A stretch of DNA of 63,491 nucleotides from Nanobdellota archaeon. Its GTDB lineage: Archaea; Nanobdellota; Nanobdellia; Pacearchaeales; GW2011-AR1. Position 1 is the first letter of the stretch. The number at the start of each line of letters is the position of its first letter. Position numbers and translations under genes: made by a program. Shown here in pieces: positions 4,373 to 37,096 of this stretch. The stretch is taken from assembly GCA_018817405.1 (NCBI GenBank), contig JAHITZ010000032.1, forward strand, positions 1 through 63,491, in the 5' to 3' direction. The notes below the pieces were generated by a model. It worked only from the letters and a program-made list of their open reading frames with translations, had not been told where the DNA came from and did not search any database.

Positions 4373-4443
4373 AATATAGTAGTAAAATATAGCATATATA
4401 AAACGATAATATTAAATAGTTAGCACTATGCTATAATAATACT

Positions 4444-5481
4444 ATGGATAATAGCATTAAGCTAGATAAGAAGGATCTACAACTTCTAAGGTTGTTAGGA
4501 GAGAATTGCAGATTTCAACTTTCTACCTTAGCCAGAGCGCTTAATTTATCTAAAGATACAATAAGAAACAGAATTAAAGCCTTGGAGAAAAATCGCACCA
4601 TAACCCATTATAATACCCTATTAAATCCGAGACCGCTCGGATACTCAAAGTTCCAAATCCTAATAAAATTCAAAAGCGATATAAAAAATAAACAAGCACA
4701 AATAGAAAAATTAACTAAGCAGAAATCAATAAGTTTCATCAACACACTTATAGGAAAATATGATATTCATATCATTATAGATTCAGAGAATATTTTTTCG
4801 TTTGATAAAGCAAAATCTGAAATATTTGAGATATTAAAAAACTCAATCCAAAGTTATACTGTGCTCACCTTTTTCAATGATATTAAACACACGAATTTAA
4901 TTCCCGAAACATCAATGGATGTAAAAGTTCAAAAAAATCTTGACACTTCTTTCTCGTCATTACTCTCTCCAACCTTTGAAGTTGAACAAACAACACCAGA
5001 TTATACCCCTGATTCTCTTGATATTGAAATACTAAAAATACTAACAAAAAACCCCAGAGAAACATTGGTGCAGATAAGCAAGGATCTAAAGTACAATAGA
5101 GAAACAATAAAACAAAGGATTGTCAAATTAATCAAGAACAGAGTAATTATGAATTTCGGAGCAAATCTCTCTTTTGATTCATTTAATTACACCACCTATT
5201 TCATATTAATCAAAACTAACAGGGGCGTCGATGAAAGAGACTTGAAAAATTCTTTCAAAAGCGTAGACAATCTCTTTTACTGTGCAAAGACCTTGGGAGA
5301 TTATTCTTTAATAGCCTACATACTTGCAAAATCTCCCACACAATTGAAAGAGACTATTAAAAAAATTCAGGAGATTCTAGGAGACAGCATGTCAGAGTCA
5401 GATCTTCTTATCTTTGATGAATTACTCCTCTACAAACAACTGCCTCCAAACTTACTTGAAGAGATTAGAAAAAATGACTAA
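4444..5481 (+). CDS. Transcriptional regulator with two tandem Lrp/AsnC-type winged-HTH modules
   Basis: DKKDLQLLRLLGENCR..STLARALNLSKDTIRNRIKALE and a second copy DIEILKILTKNPRETLVQISKDLKYNRETIKQRIVKL. Confidence 0.65.
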   Translation: MDNSIKLDKKDLQLLRLLGENCRFQLSTLARALNLSKDTIRNRIKALEKNRTITHYNTLLNPRPLGYSKFQILIKFKSDIKNKQAQIEKLTKQKSISFINTLIGKYDIHIIIDSENIFSFDKAKSEIFEILKNSIQSYTVLTFFNDIKHTNLIPETSMDVKVQKNLDTSFSSLLSPTFEVEQTTPDYTPDSLDIEILKILTKNPRETLVQISKDLKYNRETIKQRIVKLIKNRVIMNFGANLSFDSFNYTTYFILIKTNRGVDERDLKNSFKSVDNLFYCAKTLGDYSLIAYILAKSPTQLKETIKKIQEILGDSMSESDLLIFDELLLYKQLPPNLLEEIRKND

Positions 5482-5736: not shown

Positions 5737-6675
5737 ATGTATATCGAAAAAAGAAAGTATTATGGCAAGACAAAGTATTGGCTTTCTCACTCATTCAGGG
5801 AAGGAGGCAAGATACATAAAATAAGAAAATTACTGGGCGTAGATTTAACTAAGGATAAATTAGAAGAAAGAAAAGAAAGGGCTGAGAACCTCATCTTAGA
5901 AGAAATTAATAAGTACAAAATAATAAAAGATCCCCTCCATGATAAGATATCCAAAGAAGAAATTGAATTTATTAAAAGGTTGCAAGCAGAAGCAAATCTT
6001 AAAGTAATTCACCTATCTGAAAAGCAGTGGAAAACTTTCTCTGAAATTTTTAGTTATAATACTAATGCGATAGAAGGCAGCGAATTAAGTAAAAAAGAAA
6101 CCAAGGAAGTCATAGAAAAAGGAGTTTGGCCAGTTGAAAAGTCTAAAGAAGATATCGCAGAAGCGTTAGGTGTGAACGAAGCCATAAAACTTATTAGAAA
6201 AACAAAAGAACATATTTCTTTAGACTTAATTAAGCAAATCCATTATATTGTTTTCAAAAACTCTAAAGATTTTGCAGGAGAATTGAGAAAGTTAGGACAA
6301 GAAGTAGTTGTTAGAACTGGAACAGGATTTATTGTTCACGAAGGCGCGCCTTCCTCGAGAGTTATTACTTTGCTCAATGAACTAATCAAATGGTATAATA
6401 AACACAAATCAGAATATCCTGGAATTCTGTTGGCTTCTGTCATACACAATCAGTTTGAAAATATACACCCCTTTGCAGATGGCAATGGAAGAGCCGGCAG
6501 AATTTTATTGAATAATATTTTATTAAAAAATAATCTTCCACCAGTCAATATAGATATAAAAAACCAAGCTGAATATTATCAGACTTTGCAATCTTATGAA
6601 AAAGATGGAAACATAAGGCCAACTATAGAACTCATATTAAAAGAGTACAAAAGTCTAAGTAAAATAATAAAATAA
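5737..6675 (+). CDS. fic: Fic-family protein (AMPylase-type), with N-terminal inhibitory motif
   Basis: HPFADGNGRAGR active-site motif; TNAIEG matches the (S/T)xxxE(G/N) inhibitory helix. Confidence 0.85.
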   Translation: MYIEKRKYYGKTKYWLSHSFREGGKIHKIRKLLGVDLTKDKLEERKERAENLILEEINKYKIIKDPLHDKISKEEIEFIKRLQAEANLKVIHLSEKQWKTFSEIFSYNTNAIEGSELSKKETKEVIEKGVWPVEKSKEDIAEALGVNEAIKLIRKTKEHISLDLIKQIHYIVFKNSKDFAGELRKLGQEVVVRTGTGFIVHEGAPSSRVITLLNELIKWYNKHKSEYPGILLASVIHNQFENIHPFADGNGRAGRILLNNILLKNNLPPVNIDIKNQAEYYQTLQSYEKDGNIRPTIELILKEYKSLSKIIK

Positions 6676-10256: not shown

Positions 10257-10514
10257 ATGGTGCGGGCATTCATAGATATCAGACCAGGAGACACTATTTC
10301 TATCAAGCCAAATAATTTAGAGCTAATGATTTTAAATTCAAATAGCCAAACCCTGAATCTACAAATATCTGGCGGGAGAAAGTTATCAATACCAGAAGGA
10401 GCAAACGCTCATCTCTCAACAGGCATATCACTGCACAACTATGGACACAGGGGCATGGGGAAGGCATATCACATAAGATTAACTTGCACACCAATAATCC
10501 CTTATACAAGATAA
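10257..10514 (+). CDS. Hypothetical small protein
   Basis: 85-aa ORF, no recognisable motif. Confidence 0.3.
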   Translation: MVRAFIDIRPGDTISIKPNNLELMILNSNSQTLNLQISGGRKLSIPEGANAHLSTGISLHNYGHRGMGKAYHIRLTCTPIIPYTR

Positions 10515-10607
10515 CAAGAACCCGCAAGGGAAAAGCAAATAATGTGGGGCTTGGATAAATCACAAGGTTTCGATAACTCTTTTAAACCCAGTTTCCTCAA
10601 CAGACAT

Positions 10608-11864
10608 ATGGCATTTTTCGATTTTTTAAGACGTTCCAGTAAGAAAGAAGAACAAAAACAATTAGAAGAAATAAATCTAAATGAAATTCCTGATTGGATA
10701 GGTTCTAAATCAAATAAGATATTTGAGAATCTAGACTCTGAATTTGAAGAAATAAGAGAGAAAATATCTCAAGAAAAAATAGCTCTCAAACAAAATCTTA
10801 AAAATCTAGAACAAGCAGAACTCAAGAATAAGGATATTCCTGATAGAATGAAGCAGATAATGGAAGGAAACAGGAGAATATATGTCCATAAAATTAATAG
10901 TTTTATAAGAAAAATTAATTTTCCTAGCGACACTGATGAAGCTTTAAACTTCGCAGTTTCTTTTGATTCAGAATTAGATAAGTTTGATAAAAGCATAGGG
11001 AAAAGCCACAACATCCTGGAAGAATTTTTCCCTGAAAAAGCAAATCTTGTCTCAACAAACGTGAAAAATATAGACAAATTAGTCAAAGAGGCAAAATCTA
11101 AAATAAAAAATTCTGAGGTTGAAAAAGTAAACGAACTAAAAAACCATGTTTCTTCAACATTAAATAAAATAAAACAAAAAGAAGAAGGCCATAAAAGGTT
11201 AAAACTGCTTGAAGAAGATTTGAAATTCCATAAGGAAACAATAAACAATAAGGAAAGTAGGTTAGAACAACTCCAACAACAAGAGACATACAAGAAAATA
11301 ATAGAGTTAATGGAAACGAAAGAACAACTAGAACAGAAAATTAAAGAAAACGAATCTAAATTTGTACATTCTTTTTCAGAGATTGAGACAGCCCTTAAAA
11401 AATATGAAAACCTCTCGGAAAATAAACTGGCAAAAAGATATTTGGAAGATTCTTTAAATGCTTTGCTAGGAGATAAGGATTTGGAAATTTTAGGCTTGTT
11501 AGATGCAATAAAAAAAGCAATTGCAAGCGGAGATATCACCTTGAAGGACAAAAAGAAAGATAAGGTGATAAAAGAATTGGACAGCCTAGATAAAGATTAC
11601 ATTGAAAGTTTCTTGCAAACTCACACAAACTCAAATAAAGACCTCTCTGAATTAGATTCTAAAATTAGAAGTTCCAATATCCTCAAAGAGATTGAAAATC
11701 TCAAGGATGAATTAAAACAAGACAACACAAATCTTGAAAAAGACAAGTTCAAGATAGGTAAGATGAAAAAAGAGACAGAGGGGATTGATGTTTCTCAGTT
11801 AATTTCAGGACTTGAAGACAAAATTAGAGAGAATACAGGAGAGGAAGTTAAAATCAACAATTAA
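10608..11864 (+). CDS. Coiled-coil protein (K/E-rich)
   Basis: Start placed at internal Met MAFFDFL; long heptad-like K/E/L/N-rich sequence. Confidence 0.6.
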   Translation: MAFFDFLRRSSKKEEQKQLEEINLNEIPDWIGSKSNKIFENLDSEFEEIREKISQEKIALKQNLKNLEQAELKNKDIPDRMKQIMEGNRRIYVHKINSFIRKINFPSDTDEALNFAVSFDSELDKFDKSIGKSHNILEEFFPEKANLVSTNVKNIDKLVKEAKSKIKNSEVEKVNELKNHVSSTLNKIKQKEEGHKRLKLLEEDLKFHKETINNKESRLEQLQQQETYKKIIELMETKEQLEQKIKENESKFVHSFSEIETALKKYENLSENKLAKRYLEDSLNALLGDKDLEILGLLDAIKKAIASGDITLKDKKKDKVIKELDSLDKDYIESFLQTHTNSNKDLSELDSKIRSSNILKEIENLKDELKQDNTNLEKDKFKIGKMKKETEGIDVSQLISGLEDKIRENTGEEVKINN

Positions 11865-12463
11865 CGAGCACTATCTGCTTGTTTCTCTGCCTCGTTCTTT
11901 TTTGAAAGAGCATAACTTTCCATATTCCCCTCTGAAGCTTTGATTATCTCCTCAGCAAGTGATTGTACCATCTTCTTTTTCTTTCCAAAACATCTTTGAT
12001 ATGCTCCCTGAACCATCCATCTCAACGCAAGGTCAACCCTTCTTGTAGGAGAAGTGTCAATTGCCTGTGGATATCTTGCTCCACCATGTTCAATAACAGT
12101 GATTTCGTCTCTTGGCGAACAATTTTCAATCGCAGTCACAAGAATCTGGACAGCATTTTTCTTTGTTCTTTGTTCAATAAGATTCATTACCTCTATCACA
12201 GTAACCATATTTTTGTTATACTTTCCAGAAGCCCAGCTTGTAATTATTTTGTGCCTCTTTCCGACATGTCCTGGTGTTGCAATCCTATTTGCAAGTCTCT
12301 CTAAGATATTCACTCTTGCCTTGCCAAACTTCCCAACATTCCTCCCCTGCGACTTCAAAAGCAACTTTGGTTCAACATTTATATAAGGCTTCAAAGCAGG
12401 ATCCTTTATCTCAATGTCAGAGACATCAAATATGTCGAAGAGTTTTATTTCTTGTTCAGCCAT
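11861..12463 (-). CDS. rps7: 30S ribosomal protein S7
   Basis: Start at MAEQEIKLFD, preceded by GGAGG; conserved S7 core (RVNILERLANRI, ENCSPR). Confidence 0.9.
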   Translation of the reverse strand: MAEQEIKLFDIFDVSDIEIKDPALKPYINVEPKLLLKSQGRNVGKFGKARVNILERLANRIATPGHVGKRHKIITSWASGKYNKNMVTVIEVMNLIEQRTKKNAVQILVTAIENCSPRDEITVIEHGGARYPQAIDTSPTRRVDLALRWMVQGAYQRCFGKKKKMVQSLAEEIIKASEGNMESYALSKKNEAEKQADSAR

Positions 12464-12683
12464 CCGCAATCCTCCTTGTTTTTTTATATTTTTTCCCAGC
12501 AGGAGTAAGCTTAACGCGCGGAACAGCAGAGTCCACAAACACTTGTGCATAACCTGTTGTTGTTAATTCTCCCTGAACCCTATCATACACATGGGCATCT
12601 AAACCACTAAAATCTACATGTCCCCCATTGTCATAAGCTTTTGATACAATTTCTTGTGTCGCGTCACTTAATTCTCTTGTCAT
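12456..12683 (-). CDS. Orphan ORF (75 aa) inside the rps12-rps7 operon
   Basis: TAA-A-ATG junction with the upstream ORF; overlaps the rps7 ATG by 8 nt. Confidence 0.5.
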   Translation of the reverse strand: MTRELSDATQEIVSKAYDNGGHVDFSGLDAHVYDRVQGELTTTGYAQVFVDSAVPRVKLTPAGKKYKKTRRIADG

Positions 12684-12684
12684 T

Positions 12685-13026
12685 TTATCTCATCTCCTCC
12701 AACTTAATCCCACATTCTTCAAACATTTTTAAAACTCTCTCAACTCTCACATCTGGATTTCCCAAACTTTTAGTATTAACACAAAGCACACATCTCTCTG
12801 CTTTACCATCCAAACCAATAGGCTCTCTTGTATGAAAATGTGGTGGATTTTCTTCTAATTCTAAACCATTATCTTTACGCAAACTATAATGCTGTACACC
12901 ATTCAAATATTTTCCTCTGGCAACTTTTCCTGATCTATTCAATCTTTCAAACAAATCCTGCATGCCCTCGCTATCTGCAAGAAAACAATATACAGCATCT
13001 TTAATCGTTTGAGTTCCAGTTGTCAT
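12685..13026 (-). CDS. Orphan ORF (113 aa from the internal ATG) inside the rps12-rps7 operon
   Basis: TAA-A-ATG junctions on both sides; contains PPHFHTREP and CVLC. Confidence 0.5.
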   Translation of the reverse strand: MTTGTQTIKDAVYCFLADSEGMQDLFERLNRSGKVARGKYLNGVQHYSLRKDNGLELEENPPHFHTREPIGLDGKAERCVLCVNTKSLGNPDVRVERVLKMFEECGIKLEEMR

Positions 13027-13027
13027 T

Positions 13028-13378
13028 TTACGCCGGGACCTCTGCCGCTCGGCTTTGAGATTGTGCAGATTCCACAATTCTTTTCAGTTTAGCTGAAAAG
13101 CTCAAAGAGGATCTATCCTCAGGACAATAAACATTGGCTGTGTACTGAGTGCCAACTCGCACCCCCTCATTGCCATAACCAGACACTGATTCAGATAATA
13201 AAAAATACTCTCCCCCCAATGTCAGTGCAGTTACTCTGGGAGTTGTCTCCAAATCGGTTGAGTGAACAATTTTCCTATGTTTAGTCCCACGAATAAATTC
13301 CCCAACGCCCGCTACAACTGCCTCAATCATTAGACCATCATAACTTCTCACATTAACTCCCTCAAATTGATTCCACAT
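13028..13378 (-). CDS. Orphan ORF (116 aa from the internal ATG) inside the rps12-rps7 operon
   Basis: TAG-A-ATG junction with the rps12 stop. Confidence 0.5.
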   Translation of the reverse strand: MWNQFEGVNVRSYDGLMIEAVVAGVGEFIRGTKHRKIVHSTDLETTPRVTALTLGGEYFLLSESVSGYGNEGVRVGTQYTANVYCPEDRSSLSFSAKLKRIVESAQSQSRAAEVPA

Positions 13379-13379
13379 T

Positions 13380-13802
13380 CTATCTCCTCCCCTTCTCAAT
13401 CTTCCCGCTCACCAATCGCGACAAAGGCTGATCATTTACTTTAATTACTTGGAACCTGATTCCTCTGATATCTCCTTTCGAACGTCCCTGCTTTCCTCCA
13501 ATTCTTTCTATCACAACTTCATCGTGTTCATCAATATACTTTTGCGCAAGGTTTCCAGGAATAAATGCCCCAACTTGAATTGCATTCTTAACAAGTTGAA
13601 CCTTACAGCATTTCCTCATCGCAGAGTTTGGCTGCGCAGCTTCTTTTTGAAATTTTTCTATAACAATTCCTTTTGCCTGGCTAGCCCTCCCAAGCGGGTC
13701 TGACTTAATCTTAAGATTTTTCATCTTAGTATTGTAAGTCTTATCAGCCCATCTAAACTTGCTTCTTTTCTTTGACAATTTTCTAGCACTTAATAGTCCC
13801 AT
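13380..13802 (-). CDS. rps12: 30S ribosomal protein S12
   Basis: 140 aa; [18 protein letters not shown], typical S12 core. Confidence 0.95.
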
Positions 13803-13840: not shown

Positions 13841-14059
13841 TTAACGAACCTTCCCTTCATTCTTTCTAATCGCTCTTAAAATCCAAACAACAATCCAAGT
13901 GACAATTATCAGCCCAAGAGCAATAGGGCCATAAAAAGAGATGTAAAGAGCCATCCCCAGATTCACCCCAAATACGAACGCTCCATAAATCAAGAAACCA
14001 AAAAACAATAAAACTACAATCACACTAATAATCCAGCCAACTTTAATCTCATTTTCCAT
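13841..14059 (-). CDS. Small two-TM membrane protein
   Basis: 72 aa, host-like composition; TAA-A-ATG junction with the nusA stop. Confidence 0.5.
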
Positions 14060-14477: not shown

Positions 14478-14865
14478 GTTAAACCTTTTTAAGAATACTT
14501 CCTTTCACAACTATCCTTTTTCAATGTAGTTTATAAATTTATCTCTTCTTTACTGCTTTGTTAAATAAGTGGTGTTTGTTAAAAAAGCCGATTCCTGAAA
14601 TATTGAAAATAAAGAGTCAAGCCAGATAAAATTATAGTTGTTATTGCTAAAACCCAAGTAGCCCATACGAGCCTTATATTTGTTCTTTCAATTCTATAAG
14701 CAATATATGATTGAAATACTTTATCATTCAGGGTATTTATTTCTATTAAATCATTATTTTGTATTTTAGGGTTTTGTTTTTTAGCATTTTCCCTTTCAAT
14801 GTAAATAGCAATTTTTTTGTAATCTTTAAACCATCTTTTAAAACTCAGTGTATACTTCCTACCAC

Positions 14866-17800
14866 TTAACTTTTCTTCCCTTCATCTTTCCTAACCAAAG
14901 GCCCAGTCACTTTAACCAGCAAACCAGGCAAGCCAGTGCCAACAGGAATTGGCTGGTTCAATAAAATATTTTCAATCACAGATTTCAGTTCGTCTTCAGA
15001 ACCTTTAATTGTTGCATTAACAAATTGCTTATCTGGTGTTTCAAAAGTCGCCCGTGCCAAAATACTTGCTTTATCAGTTATGATTCCCATTCTTGTCACA
15101 CCTTTAACAGTTCCCGAAGAAGTCATAGCATCTGCTACAAGAGTCAAATGCCTTTTGTTAATGTCAAGTCCCTGGGTTTCAATAACATTTTTAATTTCAT
15201 TTATTATTGTTTGTCTTGCCGCCTCTATTCCGAGAATTTCTTTCACGTCGTGGATATCATTAGAAAAAACTTTATCTCTGTTAATCCCTTTGACCTCTAA
15301 GGTCTCCATAAGGTTGGAGCCACTTGTGAGAATAACATACTCTCTGTCTTTCTTAGAAACAACGACCTGGGGCACGCCCTTAATTCCAGAAACAACTATC
15401 TCTTTTAACTTCTCCTTTAGTTTATACATTTCTTTGAATCCATGTTCTGGAAGAGCAATAACGATTCTCATACCACTCAGCGTAGCTTTGAATTTTTTAT
15501 CTGTTAATTTATCTGCAACTTTTTGTGGGCCGATGTGGGCACCTTTTAACGCCTTTGAATCTAACTCTATTTCTATTTTATTATTCCCAAAATCAATATT
15601 TATCTCTGAGAGGATTTCTTTGAGCTTGACCTCTTTTATCTTTTCTGCTATGACTCGGGCATTCTTTTCATTATTATTCTCTCTGTCAAGATAAATTTCC
15701 ATCATTGGAGTAGATGGTTGTTTCCTAGCATCTAAAATTTCTATTAATCTTGGTAAACCAAGTGTAACCTGCATTTGAGCAACACCAGCCATATGGAATG
15801 TTCTAAGTACCATCTGCGTGGATGCCTCTCCAAATGATTGTGCAGTAATAACGCCCACAGCCTCTCCTGGAGAAATTTTGTCGTCTTTTAAGTGCAGCTT
15901 AGCAACATCTTTTCCGTCCTCTCCATAACTAAATTGAACAATATTTTCAGAAGCATCTCTCACCGTGCCGTCATATTCAACTTTCAAATCCTGCAGCGCA
16001 CTAACAAGTCTTCTGTACAAATAACCAGATTTTGGAGTCCTTAAAGCAGTGTCCATCAATGCGTCTCTTCCGGTAATCGCCCCGAAGAAGAACTCGCTTG
16101 GCTTCAATCCTTTAAGAAAACTGGACTTGATGAATCCTCTTGCTTCTGGTTTCAAATCATTTTTCTTGAAGAAAGCCAATGTTCTATCGCTATAACCAAA
16201 GCTAATTCTCTTGTTCCACAACGACTGCTGGCCAACACAACAACCCATCTGAGTAACATTAAGCATGCTTCCGCCGCTGCCTGACTTTATCATCTTATTA
16301 ATACTGCCTTCTGCAGGGAAATGGGACTTCACAACATCACTGACATCTGTTCTCACACTGTTAAGGATTTGCATTATCTTTGTTTCACGAGTTTCTTCCA
16401 TTGTTTTCCCAGGCATAGACTCCAATCTGTCTGCTTCATAATCTTCAATAACCTCAAGAGTTTTTTTCTCAGCTTTAGCTATAATCTCTTTAGTGATTTC
16501 CTTGACTTTTTCAGGGACATCTAAGTCGTGTAAGGACAAAGTGTATCCTTTTCTAGATAAATACACAGTTCCCAGTGTAAATGCCTTACTGATAGAATCA
16601 ACTGCGATCTCTCTTCCAAATTCTTTGTCTATTAACTTGACCATTTCCCCGTCTTCTGCTCCAAATGTATTGCTTCCGTTTATCGTTCCAGGAATGCTGA
16701 TATTAGAACCCTTTGGAATTACCTGTGAAAACACATCAATTCCAGAAACTTCTTTTTTCTTGACATTGTTGATTATATTTAAAGAAAACAACAGTTGGTC
16801 TGCTTCGCTTTTTTCAACAGTGTCTTTTCCTAAAAGATAAGCTCCGGTGACAGCATCTGCAATTGTTCCAACAAGGTTTGTGTTATTTTTGGATGATATA
16901 ATGTTGTTGTTTATATCCAAAAGCACTTTTGCTTCAGACAGCGCTTCTTCATTTTGAGGACTATGTATATTCATTTCATCTCCGTCAAAATCTGCGTTGT
17001 AAGGAGCTGCTGCTGCAGGGTTCAATCTAAATGTTCTTCCTGGAAGAACTTTTACATAATGTGCCATCAGCCCTTGCTTATGCAATGTGGGGTGCCTGTT
17101 GAACAGAACTATGTCTCCGTCTCTTAAGTGTCTCTCAACTTTATATCCTGGCTGTATCTCTGCAACTATTTCTTCTTTCAAATCTTCAGTAATGCGTTTC
17201 CTCCTTCCGTCTATCCTTATCACGTTGTTTACTCCAGGATATGCTGTTCCGTTTCTGATTAAATTCTTTATCTCTTCAATATTGGTGCTTGTGACAGATT
17301 CAGCTACTGTAATGACTTCTGCGATTTGCTGTGGCACTCCGATTTCATTAATTCTCAGGTAAGGGTCTGGCGAAATAACACTTCTCGCAGAGTAATTAAC
17401 CCTTTTTCCTGCAAGGTTGTGCCTTATTCTGCCCTCTTTTCCTTTAATTCTTTCAGTGATTGTTTTTAATGGCTGTCCAGAACGGTGCCTTGCAGGAGGT
17501 ATCCTCGTGACATTGTTATCAAAAAAAGTTGTAACATGATATTGCAATAAATCCCAAAGGTCTTCTATAATAACTTCTGGAGCTCCGGCATTTAGATTTT
17601 CCCATAGTCTTTGGTTGGCTCTTATAATATCACTCAATTTATGAGTCAGGTCATCTTCACTTCTTTCCCCTGTGTCAAGAGTGATTGACGGCCTTACAGT
17701 AACAGAAGGAACCAGCAATAACGAGATAACTGCTCTTTCTGGTCGTGCCGAATGAGTATTTATTCCTATTCTTCTTAGTTCTTCATCAGGGATATTAACA

Positions 17801-18297
17801 AGTCTTTCTCTTATTTCTATAGGATTCAGCCTTTTTTTGTCCACGAAAAAACTGGTTGGTTTTTCAAGTTTCACTCTGTTAATATTCTCGTTACAGTGAG
17901 GGCATTTCTTAGCATCTCTTGCTTTTTTAGCTTTTTTTGCAGGACTCAAGCCTTTTTGTTTTTCTTTGCTCAAAGCTAATTTTCCGCAATAAGGACAAAA
18001 ACTCCTTAAGCAAAGTTCTATTAGAGGAATGTATTTAATATGAAGGATAGGTCTTGCCAATTCAATGCTTCCAGAATGACCAGGACATTCCTTAACACGT
18101 TTCCCGCAAGTTCTGCACCTAACTCCAGGGTCAATTGCCCCTAACCTTAAGTCCATCAGCCCGCCGTCAACAGGAAACCCGTCAATATCATAAAGTTCTG
18201 GAGTCACAACCTTTACAGCGCTAAGTTTTTTAATCTGTTCAGCACTAAGCAAACAAAATCTCACAGACCTTATTTGCTTTCTTGAATGTTTAATCAT
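14866..18297 (-). CDS. rpoA: DNA-directed RNA polymerase largest subunit, A' and A'' parts in one ORF
   Basis: 1143 aa; Zn motif CRTCGKRVKECPGHSG, active site NADFDGDEMN, and A''-type trigger-loop region RTFHMAGVA..TLGLPRLIEILDA in the same frame. Confidence 0.9.
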   Translation of the reverse strand: MIKHSRKQIRSVRFCLLSAEQIKKLSAVKVVTPELYDIDGFPVDGGLMDLRLGAIDPGVRCRTCGKRVKECPGHSGSIELARPILHIKYIPLIELCLRSFCPYCGKLALSKEKQKGLSPAKKAKKARDAKKCPHCNENINRVKLEKPTSFFVDKKRLNPIEIRERLVNIPDEELRRIGINTHSARPERAVISLLLVPSVTVRPSITLDTGERSEDDLTHKLSDIIRANQRLWENLNAGAPEVIIEDLWDLLQYHVTTFFDNNVTRIPPARHRSGQPLKTITERIKGKEGRIRHNLAGKRVNYSARSVISPDPYLRINEIGVPQQIAEVITVAESVTSTNIEEIKNLIRNGTAYPGVNNVIRIDGRRKRITEDLKEEIVAEIQPGYKVERHLRDGDIVLFNRHPTLHKQGLMAHYVKVLPGRTFRLNPAAAAPYNADFDGDEMNIHSPQNEEALSEAKVLLDINNNIISSKNNTNLVGTIADAVTGAYLLGKDTVEKSEADQLLFSLNIINNVKKKEVSGIDVFSQVIPKGSNISIPGTINGSNTFGAEDGEMVKLIDKEFGREIAVDSISKAFTLGTVYLSRKGYTLSLHDLDVPEKVKEITKEIIAKAEKKTLEVIEDYEADRLESMPGKTMEETRETKIMQILNSVRTDVSDVVKSHFPAEGSINKMIKSGSGGSMLNVTQMGCCVGQQSLWNKRISFGYSDRTLAFFKKNDLKPEARGFIKSSFLKGLKPSEFFFGAITGRDALMDTALRTPKSGYLYRRLVSALQDLKVEYDGTVRDASENIVQFSYGEDGKDVAKLHLKDDKISPGEAVGVITAQSFGEASTQMVLRTFHMAGVAQMQVTLGLPRLIEILDARKQPSTPMMEIYLDRENNNEKNARVIAEKIKEVKLKEILSEINIDFGNNKIEIELDSKALKGAHIGPQKVADKLTDKKFKATLSGMRIVIALPEHGFKEMYKLKEKLKEIVVSGIKGVPQVVVSKKDREYVILTSGSNLMETLEVKGINRDKVFSNDIHDVKEILGIEAARQTIINEIKNVIETQGLDINKRHLTLVADAMTSSGTVKGVTRMGIITDKASILARATFETPDKQFVNATIKGSEDELKSVIENILLNQPIPVGTGLPGLLVKVTGPLVRKDEGKKS

Positions 18298-18563
18298 TTT
18301 TTCCTCTTCTCTAATTTATTTTTCAAATCATCAAAGTCTTTTTTTACTTTAACAAAAGACATCTTAACTTCATGCTTAAATTCTTTTGTTTCATCACTAA
18401 TCGCCCAGACCTTAAATATCAAAGTCAGAAACAAGACTATAACAATGCTAAGTTCTGTGGGGCTGTTGCCAAATATTCTCCAAATTACCAATATAACTGC
18501 AATTATCAATGTAATCCAAAATAATATATTAAGTATTTGTCTTTTGTTCATTTTATTGATCAT
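18294..18563 (-). CDS. Small membrane protein encoded between rpoB and rpoA
   Basis: 89 aa, two TM helices plus a K/E-rich tail; overlaps the rpoB end by 11 nt and the rpoA start by 4 nt. Confidence 0.5.
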   Translation of the reverse strand: MINKMNKRQILNILFWITLIIAVILVIWRIFGNSPTELSIVIVLFLTLIFKVWAISDETKEFKHEVKMSFVKVKKDFDDLKNKLEKRKK

Positions 18564-22141: not shown

Positions 22142-22239
22142 TGGTCCCGACGGGATTTGAACCCGCGACACCTAGGTTTCTTTTACTTTTAGTTCAATAC
22201 TAAAAGCCTAGTGCTCTAACCAGGCTGAGCTACGGAACC
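22142..22239 (-). tRNA. tRNA-Lys (UUU) with an intron of about 22 nt
   Basis: GGTTCCG/CGGGACC acceptor; GCTC-AGCCTGGTTA-GAGC D arm; anticodon stem CTAGG/CCTAG restored after removing about 22 nt; T loop TTCAAAT. Confidence 0.8.
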
Positions 22240-37010: not shown

Positions 37011-37096
37011 GCGGGGGTGCCAGAGTCCGGTCAAATGGGCTAGCTTGAGGGGCTAGTGGCTTAGTGCCTGCCAGGGTTCGAATCCCTGCTCCCGCA
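37011..37096 (+). tRNA. tRNA-Leu (GAG), no intron
   Basis: Acceptor GCGGGGG/CTCCCGC; anticodon stem CTAGC/GCTAG with loop TTGAGGG; long variable arm; T loop TTCGAAT. Confidence 0.85.

Follow-up and report, generated by a model that had tools for sequence, protein, structure and literature searches.

A variable slot for small orphan genes at the rps12-rps7 junction of a Nanobdellota archaeon and its DPANN relatives

The genes for the ribosomal proteins S12 (rps12, uS12) and S7 (rps7, uS7) are adjacent in archaea generally, as part of the str/L30e cluster (PMC10833476). Here we describe this junction in contig JAHITZ010000032.1 (assembly GCA_018817405.1) of a groundwater Nanobdellota archaeon, where three small open reading frames (ORFs), designated A, B, and C, lie between the two genes; "the window" denotes the whole stretch of 63,491 nt that was analyzed. 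Among the described systems with which the locus can be compared, integrons hold variable arrays of promoter-less cassettes in one orientation, which have an upstream resident promoter and assort independently. Phage morons and the hyperplastic regions of T4-like phages are made up of small, packed orphan ORFs that vary between conserved genes and are often chained stop to start. In hotspots of horizontal transfer, accessory genes with rapid turnover are gathered in a few intervals between core genes (Oliveira et al. 2017, PMC5635113). Translational coupling is supported across a range of spacings that includes a short overlap to a few nucleotides (Huber et al. 2019, PMC6728339; 2023, PMC10666635), and in Haloferax and E. 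coli termination-reinitiation is lost with a spacer of about 20 nt (PMC10666635). A limited literature search gave no account of interrupted S12-S7 junctions in DPANN archaea, and we claim no priority.

The unusual feature of this locus is a variable hotspot at the coupling junction between two universal ribosomal-protein genes, one that recurs across a DPANN clade. We consider it fairly probable that ORFs A, B, and C are separate, coding, fast-evolving accessory genes in a hypervariable rps12-rps7 slot common to Pacearchaeota/Woesearchaeota-like DPANN archaea. In the ancestral state, S12 is joined to S7 by the coupling junction TAA-A-ATG or TAATG; in the present state, about 60% of species carry one to three promoter-less same-strand ORFs that repeat this junction at each boundary. 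The original prediction had treated the locus as an exception, on the ground that S12 and S7 are neighbors in almost all operons. That premise holds for archaea generally and fails within this clade, in which the locus is one instance of a junction that holds different orphan ORFs in most related species.

The backbone order in the window, rpoH, rpoB, rpoA, NusA (NusA-like KH by Pfam), S12, S7, and EF-2, all co-oriented, is that of the canonical str/L30e cluster. The locus differs from that cluster in that three genes part S12 and S7, no L30e is detected in the rpoA-NusA interval, additional small ORFs stand in the rpoB-rpoA and NusA-S12 intervals, and a convergent gene for a 440-aa protein lies between S7 and EF-2. 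Coordinates and junctions were taken straight from the window sequence, and all five genes of the unit are on the minus strand: rps12 (13802-13380, 140 aa; PF00164, E = 5.5e-35), ORF A (13378-13028, 116 aa), ORF B (13026-12685, 113 aa), ORF C (12683-12456, 75 aa), and the terminal gene of the unit, rps7 (12463-11861, 200 aa; PF00177, E = 2.3e-32). ORF A, in the first slot position, is an orphan; ORF B forms a small fast-evolving family with two further proteins, P0005 and P0006; and ORF C is common only to the window and its sister species (loci L006 and L085). Instead of following S12 immediately, S7 has its ATG 916 nt beyond the S12 stop, and the three ORFs fill this distance.

The S12 stop (TAG, 13382-13380) is followed by a single A (13379) and the ATG of ORF A (13378-13376). 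The same arrangement recurs with TAA stops at the A/B boundary (stop 13030-13028, spacer A 13027, ATG 13026-13024) and the B/C boundary (stop 12687-12685, spacer A 12684, ATG 12683-12681), and the stop of ORF C (TGA, 12458-12456) lies just beyond the S7 ATG (12463-12461), an overlap of 8 nt. The four stop-to-start distances are thus +1, +1, +1, and -8 nt. A Shine-Dalgarno (SD)-like motif stands before each internal start: GGAGG at 13390-13386, inside the end of S12 (AAG GGG AGG AGA TAG), 7 nt before ORF A; GAGG at 13042-13039, inside ORF A, 12 nt before ORF B; GGAGG at 12700-12696, inside ORF B, 12 nt before ORF C; and GGAGG at 12475-12471, inside ORF C, 7 nt before the S7 ATG. The coordinates, lengths, and junctions that had been predicted, including the GGAGG within ORF C and the 8-nt overlap with S7, were all reproduced.

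The 1-nt spacers and the SD-like GGAGG or GAGG located 7 to 12 nt before each ATG would suit translational coupling, as had been proposed. Spacings of +1 and -8 nt lie within the coupling range, and the 3' ends of the upstream genes carry an SD-like motif, as in described termination-reinitiation pairs. Elsewhere the commonest spacings are -4 and -1, whereas here +1 (TAAAATG) is the house style, and 1-nt stop-start spacers are a general habit across this genome. Upstream of S12, a TATA-like box, TTTAAAAA, at 13832-13825 on the minus strand has its center about 26 nt 5' of the S12 ATG. By the spacing rule generally known for archaeal promoters it is a candidate promoter, and it would give a leaderless or near-leaderless S12 mRNA. 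Because this box lies 5' of S12, SD-like motifs precede each start, and the S7 stop overlaps the convergent 440-aa ORF, S12-A-B-C-S7 reads as one putative transcription unit, in keeping with the earlier view that the three ORFs are embedded in the operon.

A, B, and C are genuinely coding. Stop-free runs of at least 70 codons cover 99.6% of the gap, a coverage reached in 0 of 2,000 shuffles. All three show codon periodicity in GC content, with position 1 (GC1) exceeding position 2 (GC2) and position 2 exceeding position 3 (GC3), and G makes up 0.35 to 0.43 of first positions; homologs of B and C, described below, bear out the same conclusion. The GC3 of the three ORFs, 0.24 to 0.35, is host-like. 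The impression that the DNA is GC-richer than its surroundings is borne out by A (0.445), only marginally by C (0.413), and not by B (0.357), as compared with 0.40 for S12 and 0.374 for the window. In ORF A (GC1/2/3 of 0.53/0.46/0.35) the excess sits in codon positions 1 and 2. The amino acid bias noted earlier is real: lysine, isoleucine, and asparagine together make up 10% of ORF A and 28% of S12.

That the region might be an assembly chimera or mis-join, a concern raised in the original prediction, has a vanishingly small chance of being correct, and nothing was found in its favor. The locus is not an artefact, because the identical arrangement occurs in four independent assemblies (ENA ERZ27247128, GCA_018812805.1, GCA_018825405.1, and Logan SRR6514274), which encode the exact proteins and are 100%, 100%, 99.95%, and 100% identical across the S12-to-S7 stretch of 1942 nt; a similar architecture is also found in dozens of other genomes. 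The four copies represent one population and carry no information on selection. An Rfam scan of the region found no RNA family, and blastn and tblastx gave no signal for an origin of the insert in other window DNA or in other frames of the relatives' inserts.

The extent of variation at the junction is apparent from a scan with S12, which yielded 80 loci in Pacearchaeota, Woesearchaeota, and Nanoarchaeota metagenome-assembled genomes (S12 identity of 73 to 96%; loci are labeled L0xx). Junctions were counted in the 72 non-redundant loci that carry both S12 and S7. S12 stop and S7 ATG are at most 60 nt apart in 29 of these and more than 150 nt apart in 43, with a maximum of 1213 nt, so that the junction is empty in about 40% of relatives and occupied in about 60%. 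All 72 relatives have the conserved S12 end, aagggNagNagaTAA. Empty junctions read AGA TAA A ATG or TAATG, and occupied gaps contain one to three same-strand ORFs, typically of 60 to 145 aa, the first of which begins 0 to 5 nt after the S12 stop; they usually close with TAAAATG at S7, as the empty ones do. In a neighbor-joining tree of S12 plus S7, empty junctions are interspersed with filled ones throughout. Even the five-species subclade to which the window belongs contains A, B, and C (the window), an unrelated ORF followed by C (L006), an empty junction (L014), and an orphan in each of L005 and L007.

Nearly all slot ORFs are orphans with no relationship to one another. Among 63 slot ORFs, phmmer detects only 8 related pairs; a confident Pfam domain occurs in one (L034), and two others have weak regulator-like matches. 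One real multi-species family, which we call MxW, is found in L008, L009c, L021a/b, L053, and L074a (alignment A5), to which L086 was added; membership of L007 and L078 was unsupported. The domain in L034 (4493-4903) is a minimal nucleotidyltransferase (PF01909, 2e-09), the only confidently recognized slot domain. Minimal nucleotidyltransferase proteins usually partner HEPN toxins. The largest slot, of 1.2 kb, is that of L009 (442-1662), with three chained ORFs of which the last belongs to MxW; in the middle one, each of two halves weakly resembles a winged helix (the winged-helix domain [WHD] of archaeal virus protein F-93, E = 0.018, below threshold). The insert in L005, the closest relative, is bracketed by a 13-nt direct repeat, TAAAATGACAGAG (4420-4436 and 4741-4762), that corresponds to the junction plus the first S7 codons, and the ORF within it begins MTEQ, as does the ancestral S7. 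This repeat could be a target-site duplication or could reflect an origin by duplication of the junction.

Of the described systems, a core-gene-flanked transfer hotspot is the one that the locus most resembles in behavior. As in those hotspots, a core-flanked interval holds content that differs among close relatives and consists mostly of genes of unknown function. The slot differs in that it is tiny (0.2 to 1.2 kb, one to three genes), archaeal, and inside an essential co-translated operon rather than between operons, and in that its inserts lack promoters of their own and no integrase, tRNA, or mobile-element hallmark is seen nearby. Like integron arrays, the slot holds variable, promoter-less, co-oriented ORFs that assort independently and would be expressed from an upstream promoter. 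Unlike integrons, it has no attC-like sites, its spacers are of 1 nt with no boundary-associated inverted repeats found, and expression would rely on translational coupling; no integrase is among the genes called within 10 kb of the slot (by their Pfam list), the whole window not having been scanned for recombinases. The small, packed, mostly orphan ORFs between conserved genes also recall phage morons and T4 hyperplastic regions, except that the backbone here is a cellular ribosomal-protein operon, with no viral relatives in IMG/VR scans or PHROGs.

The original prediction had regarded A, B, and C as a three-gene module, and the tight stop-N-ATG chaining of all three invites the view that they are one co-functional system (a complex, or a toxin-antitoxin-like or defense module) inserted as a unit. 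Closely spaced or overlapping gene pairs are indeed enriched for subunits of heteromeric complexes (PMC10666635). The distribution of the genes argues otherwise. ORF C has 71% amino acid identity to a gene of L006 (867-1085) and a further homolog in L085, in both cases directly 5' of S7 and preceded by an unrelated 85-aa ORF, with A and B absent; a metagenome scan with the ORF C alignment added only one locus, of the same type as L006. The B family is found with other neighbors in L086 and L087, where no A-like or C-like gene stands beside it, and A is found nowhere else. A, B, and C thus assort independently of one another, as C can stand without the other two and B-family genes keep other company. 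Chaining at 1 nt is a genome-wide habit, and none of the three proteins matches PADLOC at E <= 1. We therefore regard a three-gene system as unlikely.

A weak direct repeat that brackets A and B could also be cited in favor of a joint insertion. Its two imperfect 25-nt copies (80% identity) lie at 13357-13381, covering the S12 stop and the start of A, and at 12694-12718, before the end of B. They are in different reading frames, and by our estimate the repeat is at chance level (about 0.2 to 0.3 expected in the region), yet the place that it occupies hints at an insertion footprint.

A, B, and C appear to belong to no described family among curated families and solved structures, consistent with the earlier description of them as orphans. 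None has a match at E <= 1 in Pfam, PHROGs, PADLOC, or NCBIfam, which in the case of PADLOC and Pfam includes known toxin-antitoxin and anti-phage defense components, and sequence and profile searches of the PDB with A, B, C, and MxW gave nothing below E = 0.1. Scans of IMG/VR with A, B, the C alignment, and the B alignment found no viral relatives. Separate word-seeded searches of 5.8 billion clusters with A and with C recovered only the queries themselves, negatives that are weak, as the search overlooked the 71%-identical copy of C in L006; a concatenated A+B+C query against the same clusters returned nothing, not even itself, and was disregarded as unreliable.

ORF B does have relatives. 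When 1.84 billion representatives were searched exhaustively with phmmer, P0005 (116 aa, E = 1.9e-5) and P0006 (123 aa, E = 3.6e-4) emerged, both genuine and aligned over their full length, along with two spurious matches to eukaryotic repeat proteins; for P0005 and P0006, tblastn gave E values of 1e-15 and 8e-13, respectively. Their identity to ORF B is about 33%, and the pattern LFExLN...RG...F-T-E...G...RC is common to the family over the full length. The contig of P0005 (L086) opens with GAGAAAGGTAGGAGATAA, followed directly by P0005 and then by an MxW-family gene (hhalign probability 92%, E = 5.7e-7). This opening is the 3' end of S12, in its conserved form, so the first post-S12 slot is again filled by a member of the B family, in a different lineage. 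The contig of P0006 (L087) is a dense 1.7-kb array of small, overlapping, same-strand ORFs, one of which (177-509) is homologous (E = 8e-11) to an 85-aa ORF of the window at 10257-10514 on the plus strand, in the gap between S7 and EF-2, for which the collection has no gene call. L087 therefore combines members of two distinct gap-gene families of the window; this contig may itself be a further variable region or a mobile element.

Free-standing homing endonucleases in phages classically insert between highly conserved genes, and ORF B reads HFHTREPIGLDGKAERCVLCVNTK, an HNH-like HFH...CxxC arrangement that provides a lead for the idea that the slot ORFs are selfish genes of this type targeting the S12/S7 junction. 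The direct repeat at both ends of the L005 insert would also fit. However, no HNH, GIY-YIG, or LAGLIDADG match was found at E <= 1. The AlphaFold2 single-sequence model of ORF B (pLDDT of 58, with a beta-alpha-beta-beta-beta-beta-alpha-beta layout) is too weak for fold assignment and has the form of an alpha/beta sandwich, with only generic matches of this kind by Foldseek (best E values of 0.04 in PDB and 0.02 in BFVD). The PPHFHTREP and CVLC motifs to which attention had been drawn are not conserved in the homologs. An HNH or His-Me finger assignment for ORF B was rejected: H62, H64, C79 (partly), and C82 are unconserved in P0005 and P0006 except for the Cys of R-C, and no profile or fold supports it. 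We consider an endonuclease explanation very improbable.

Taken as a class, the slot genes encode proteins whose purifying constraint is real but relaxed. The comparison of dN/dS (omega) among homologs that had been suggested at the outset was possible for six homologous slot-gene pairs, which have values of 0.27 to 0.68, significantly below 1 in four of the six; the flanking S12 and S7 genes of the same pairs have values of 0.01 to 0.09. The dN of the slot genes is 0.16 to 0.75 and that of the flanks is 0.01 to 0.17, so that slot genes evolve 5 to 10 times faster than their flanks. We infer that the slot proteins do something, because selection on them, though relaxed, is purifying.

Unknown ORFs in archaeal ribosomal operons have historically proved to be ribosomal proteins, and the slot proteins might in the same way be lineage-specific ribosome-associated proteins or translation modulators, placed beside S12 and S7 for stoichiometric co-expression. 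Purifying selection is compatible with such a role, and at least two unrelated families keep a post-S12 position in different lineages at low identity, namely the B family in the window and L086 (about 33% identity), and MxW in L008, L009, L021, L053, L074, and L086. On the other hand, the slot is empty in 40% of relatives and holds unrelated proteins in close ones, and the rate of evolution, 5 to 10 times that of the flanks, is not what such a role would predict. A, B, and C are also not basic, with lysine plus arginine at 10 to 15%, equaled by aspartate plus glutamate, compared with 24% lysine plus arginine in S12, and they have no likeness to ribosomal proteins by sequence or fold. We find this role rather unlikely, and our guess is that slot proteins are small binding or modulator proteins, accessory or conflict-related, and not core parts of the ribosome.

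If A, B, and C are accessory genes of a hypervariable slot, as we favor, they would be transcribed from the S12 promoter and translated by termination-reinitiation, aided by the SD-like GGAGG in the preceding ORF. The outcome would be constitutive, high expression at roughly the level of ribosomal proteins. S7 synthesis would depend on the same coupling, and only inserts that remain ORFs chained stop to start would be tolerated, since any break in the chain would leave the cell short of S7. Such a filter by coupling would explain why the gaps are always fully coding and why the junction motif is reproduced. Content would turn over by gain, loss, and replacement, at least partly through lateral exchange among relatives from a shared pool of small genes, together with very fast divergence. 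DNA homology between the window and L006 switches on exactly at TAAAATG and fades in the tail of ORF C. Because the synonymous divergence (pS) of ORF C in this comparison, 0.34, is about half that of the flanks (0.63 for S12 and 0.77 for S7, 0.71 pooled; P = 1e-7), the sequences suggest that ORF C may have been exchanged after the species split. The low pS of ORF C and the occurrence of B-family genes in other contexts are signs of lateral acquisition, yet GC3 is host-like and some pairs of slot genes (L070/L075) look vertical.

Several points weigh against this interpretation. Transcription from the S12 promoter and coupling are both read from the nucleotides themselves. The low pS of ORF C comes from about 50 synonymous sites in one comparison, between sister taxa, and it may represent vertical descent with a synonymous constraint that is unexplained. 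No recombination machinery, att-like site, or convincing terminal repeat was found at the locus. Every junction in the rpoA-NusA-S12-S7-EF2 series is loosened in the clade, with more than 150 nt at rpoA-NusA in 37% of loci, at NusA-S12 in 53%, and at S7-EF2 in 77%, so S12-S7 may lack special targeting; it is the most striking variable junction of the cluster, not the sole one. The omega of ORF C, about 0.5, is not significantly below 1 (P = 0.10). Finally, ORF A has no relative in any search, and none in any frame of the 80 related loci, and its AlphaFold2 single-sequence model is very poor (pLDDT of 38), too weak for fold assignment. ORF A could thus be a young or non-functional translated ORF.

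The last two observations would be accommodated if some or all of the ORFs, A especially, were translated spacers or proto-genes, with selection acting on the translation that relays ribosomes to S7 and not on the protein. Coupling needs near-zero spacing, so inserts must stay open whether or not their products matter. Nonetheless, the strong periodicity in G1 and GC1 in all three ORFs, the retention of the full-length motif pattern by B at 33% identity, and the omega values significantly below 1 in other slot families are not expected of spacers; moreover, a short relay would be cheaper, yet slot ORFs are typically 60 to 145 aa. We hold the spacer explanation to be doubtful. Two other candidate assignments fell short. 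ORF A was considered as a diverged MxW member on the basis of its MW start and position, but hmmsearch gave no match and hhalign gave a probability of 0.3%, compared with 92% for the L086 ORF. A winged-helix identity for ORF C is an impression that we do not claim, since the subthreshold matches to EarA and the F-93 WHD are to related-looking slot ORFs and none is to C.

A bolder version of the accessory-gene interpretation can be sketched, to which we attach only a low probability. The junction might be a dedicated, integrase-free "expression dock," at which small genes of a clade-wide mobile pool are swapped by recombination at TAAAATG and its flanks, kept as chained ORFs, and expressed at ribosomal-protein levels. 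Such a dock would give genome-reduced, regulator-poor symbionts a changing set of abundant small proteins for the ribosome or for conflicts with hosts or viruses.

Should the accessory-gene interpretation hold, a gene junction that is among the most conserved in biology is where a whole DPANN clade parks fast-changing small genes and expresses them. The slot would then be a compact natural system, with inserts of 0.2 to 1.2 kb, known flanks, and easy amplification from metagenomes, in which to study gene gain, loss, and possibly birth under the constraint of coupling to an essential gene. It would also be a source of dozens of abundant, unannotated small-protein families in poorly known organisms, and a caution for pipelines in annotation and phylogenomics that take S12-S7 contiguity for granted or drop short orphan ORFs in ribosomal operons. 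Even if the slot proteins were inert, the locus would show how coupling shapes the insertions that survive. Its interest would be greater if expression and function, or a dedicated mechanism of exchange, were demonstrated.

Other intervals of the cluster have features of their own. Between NusA (14477-14061) and S12, a 72-aa predicted membrane protein is encoded on the minus strand (13841-14059), starting 1 nt after the NusA stop; a homolog was found in 0 of the 80 related loci. Between rpoB and rpoA, an 85-aa ORF without a Pfam match (18294-18551, minus strand) follows rpoB with a spacing of +1 nt, shares 4 nt with rpoA, and looks like another case of the same insertion habit, inside RNA polymerase genes. 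The rpoA gene (14866-18297, minus strand) is a single ORF of 1143 aa with Rpb1 domains 1 to 5, in which the A' and A'' subunits appear to be fused; they are split in most archaea. Archaea normally carry the L30e gene between rpoA and NusA, and here this interval (14478-14865) is an AT-rich spacer of 392 nt (GC of 0.27 to 0.29) in which no L30e ORF was seen.

On the other side of the slot, the convergent gene at 10542-11864 on the plus strand, which overlaps the S7 stop by 4 nt, encodes a 440-aa protein that is rich in lysine and glutamate, is probably a coiled coil, and has no Pfam match. Homologs stand at the same place in L005, L007, L010, and L014. In the near-identical strains L002 and L003, the region of this gene is replaced by genes for proteins of 418 and 86 aa, and because these strains differ here, strain-level variation adjoins the slot. 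A few kilobases beyond EF-2 are a Fic-domain gene (about 5737-6675, from L001 16352-17290) and a DUF7557 gene with a ParE-toxin-like neighbor (about 2685-2922, from L001 20105-20342), which are addiction-type genes close to the translation cluster. Elsewhere in the window, two tRNA genes, of 98 nt (22142-22239, minus strand) and 86 nt (37011-37096, plus strand), probably both contain introns, because they are longer than a standard tRNA.

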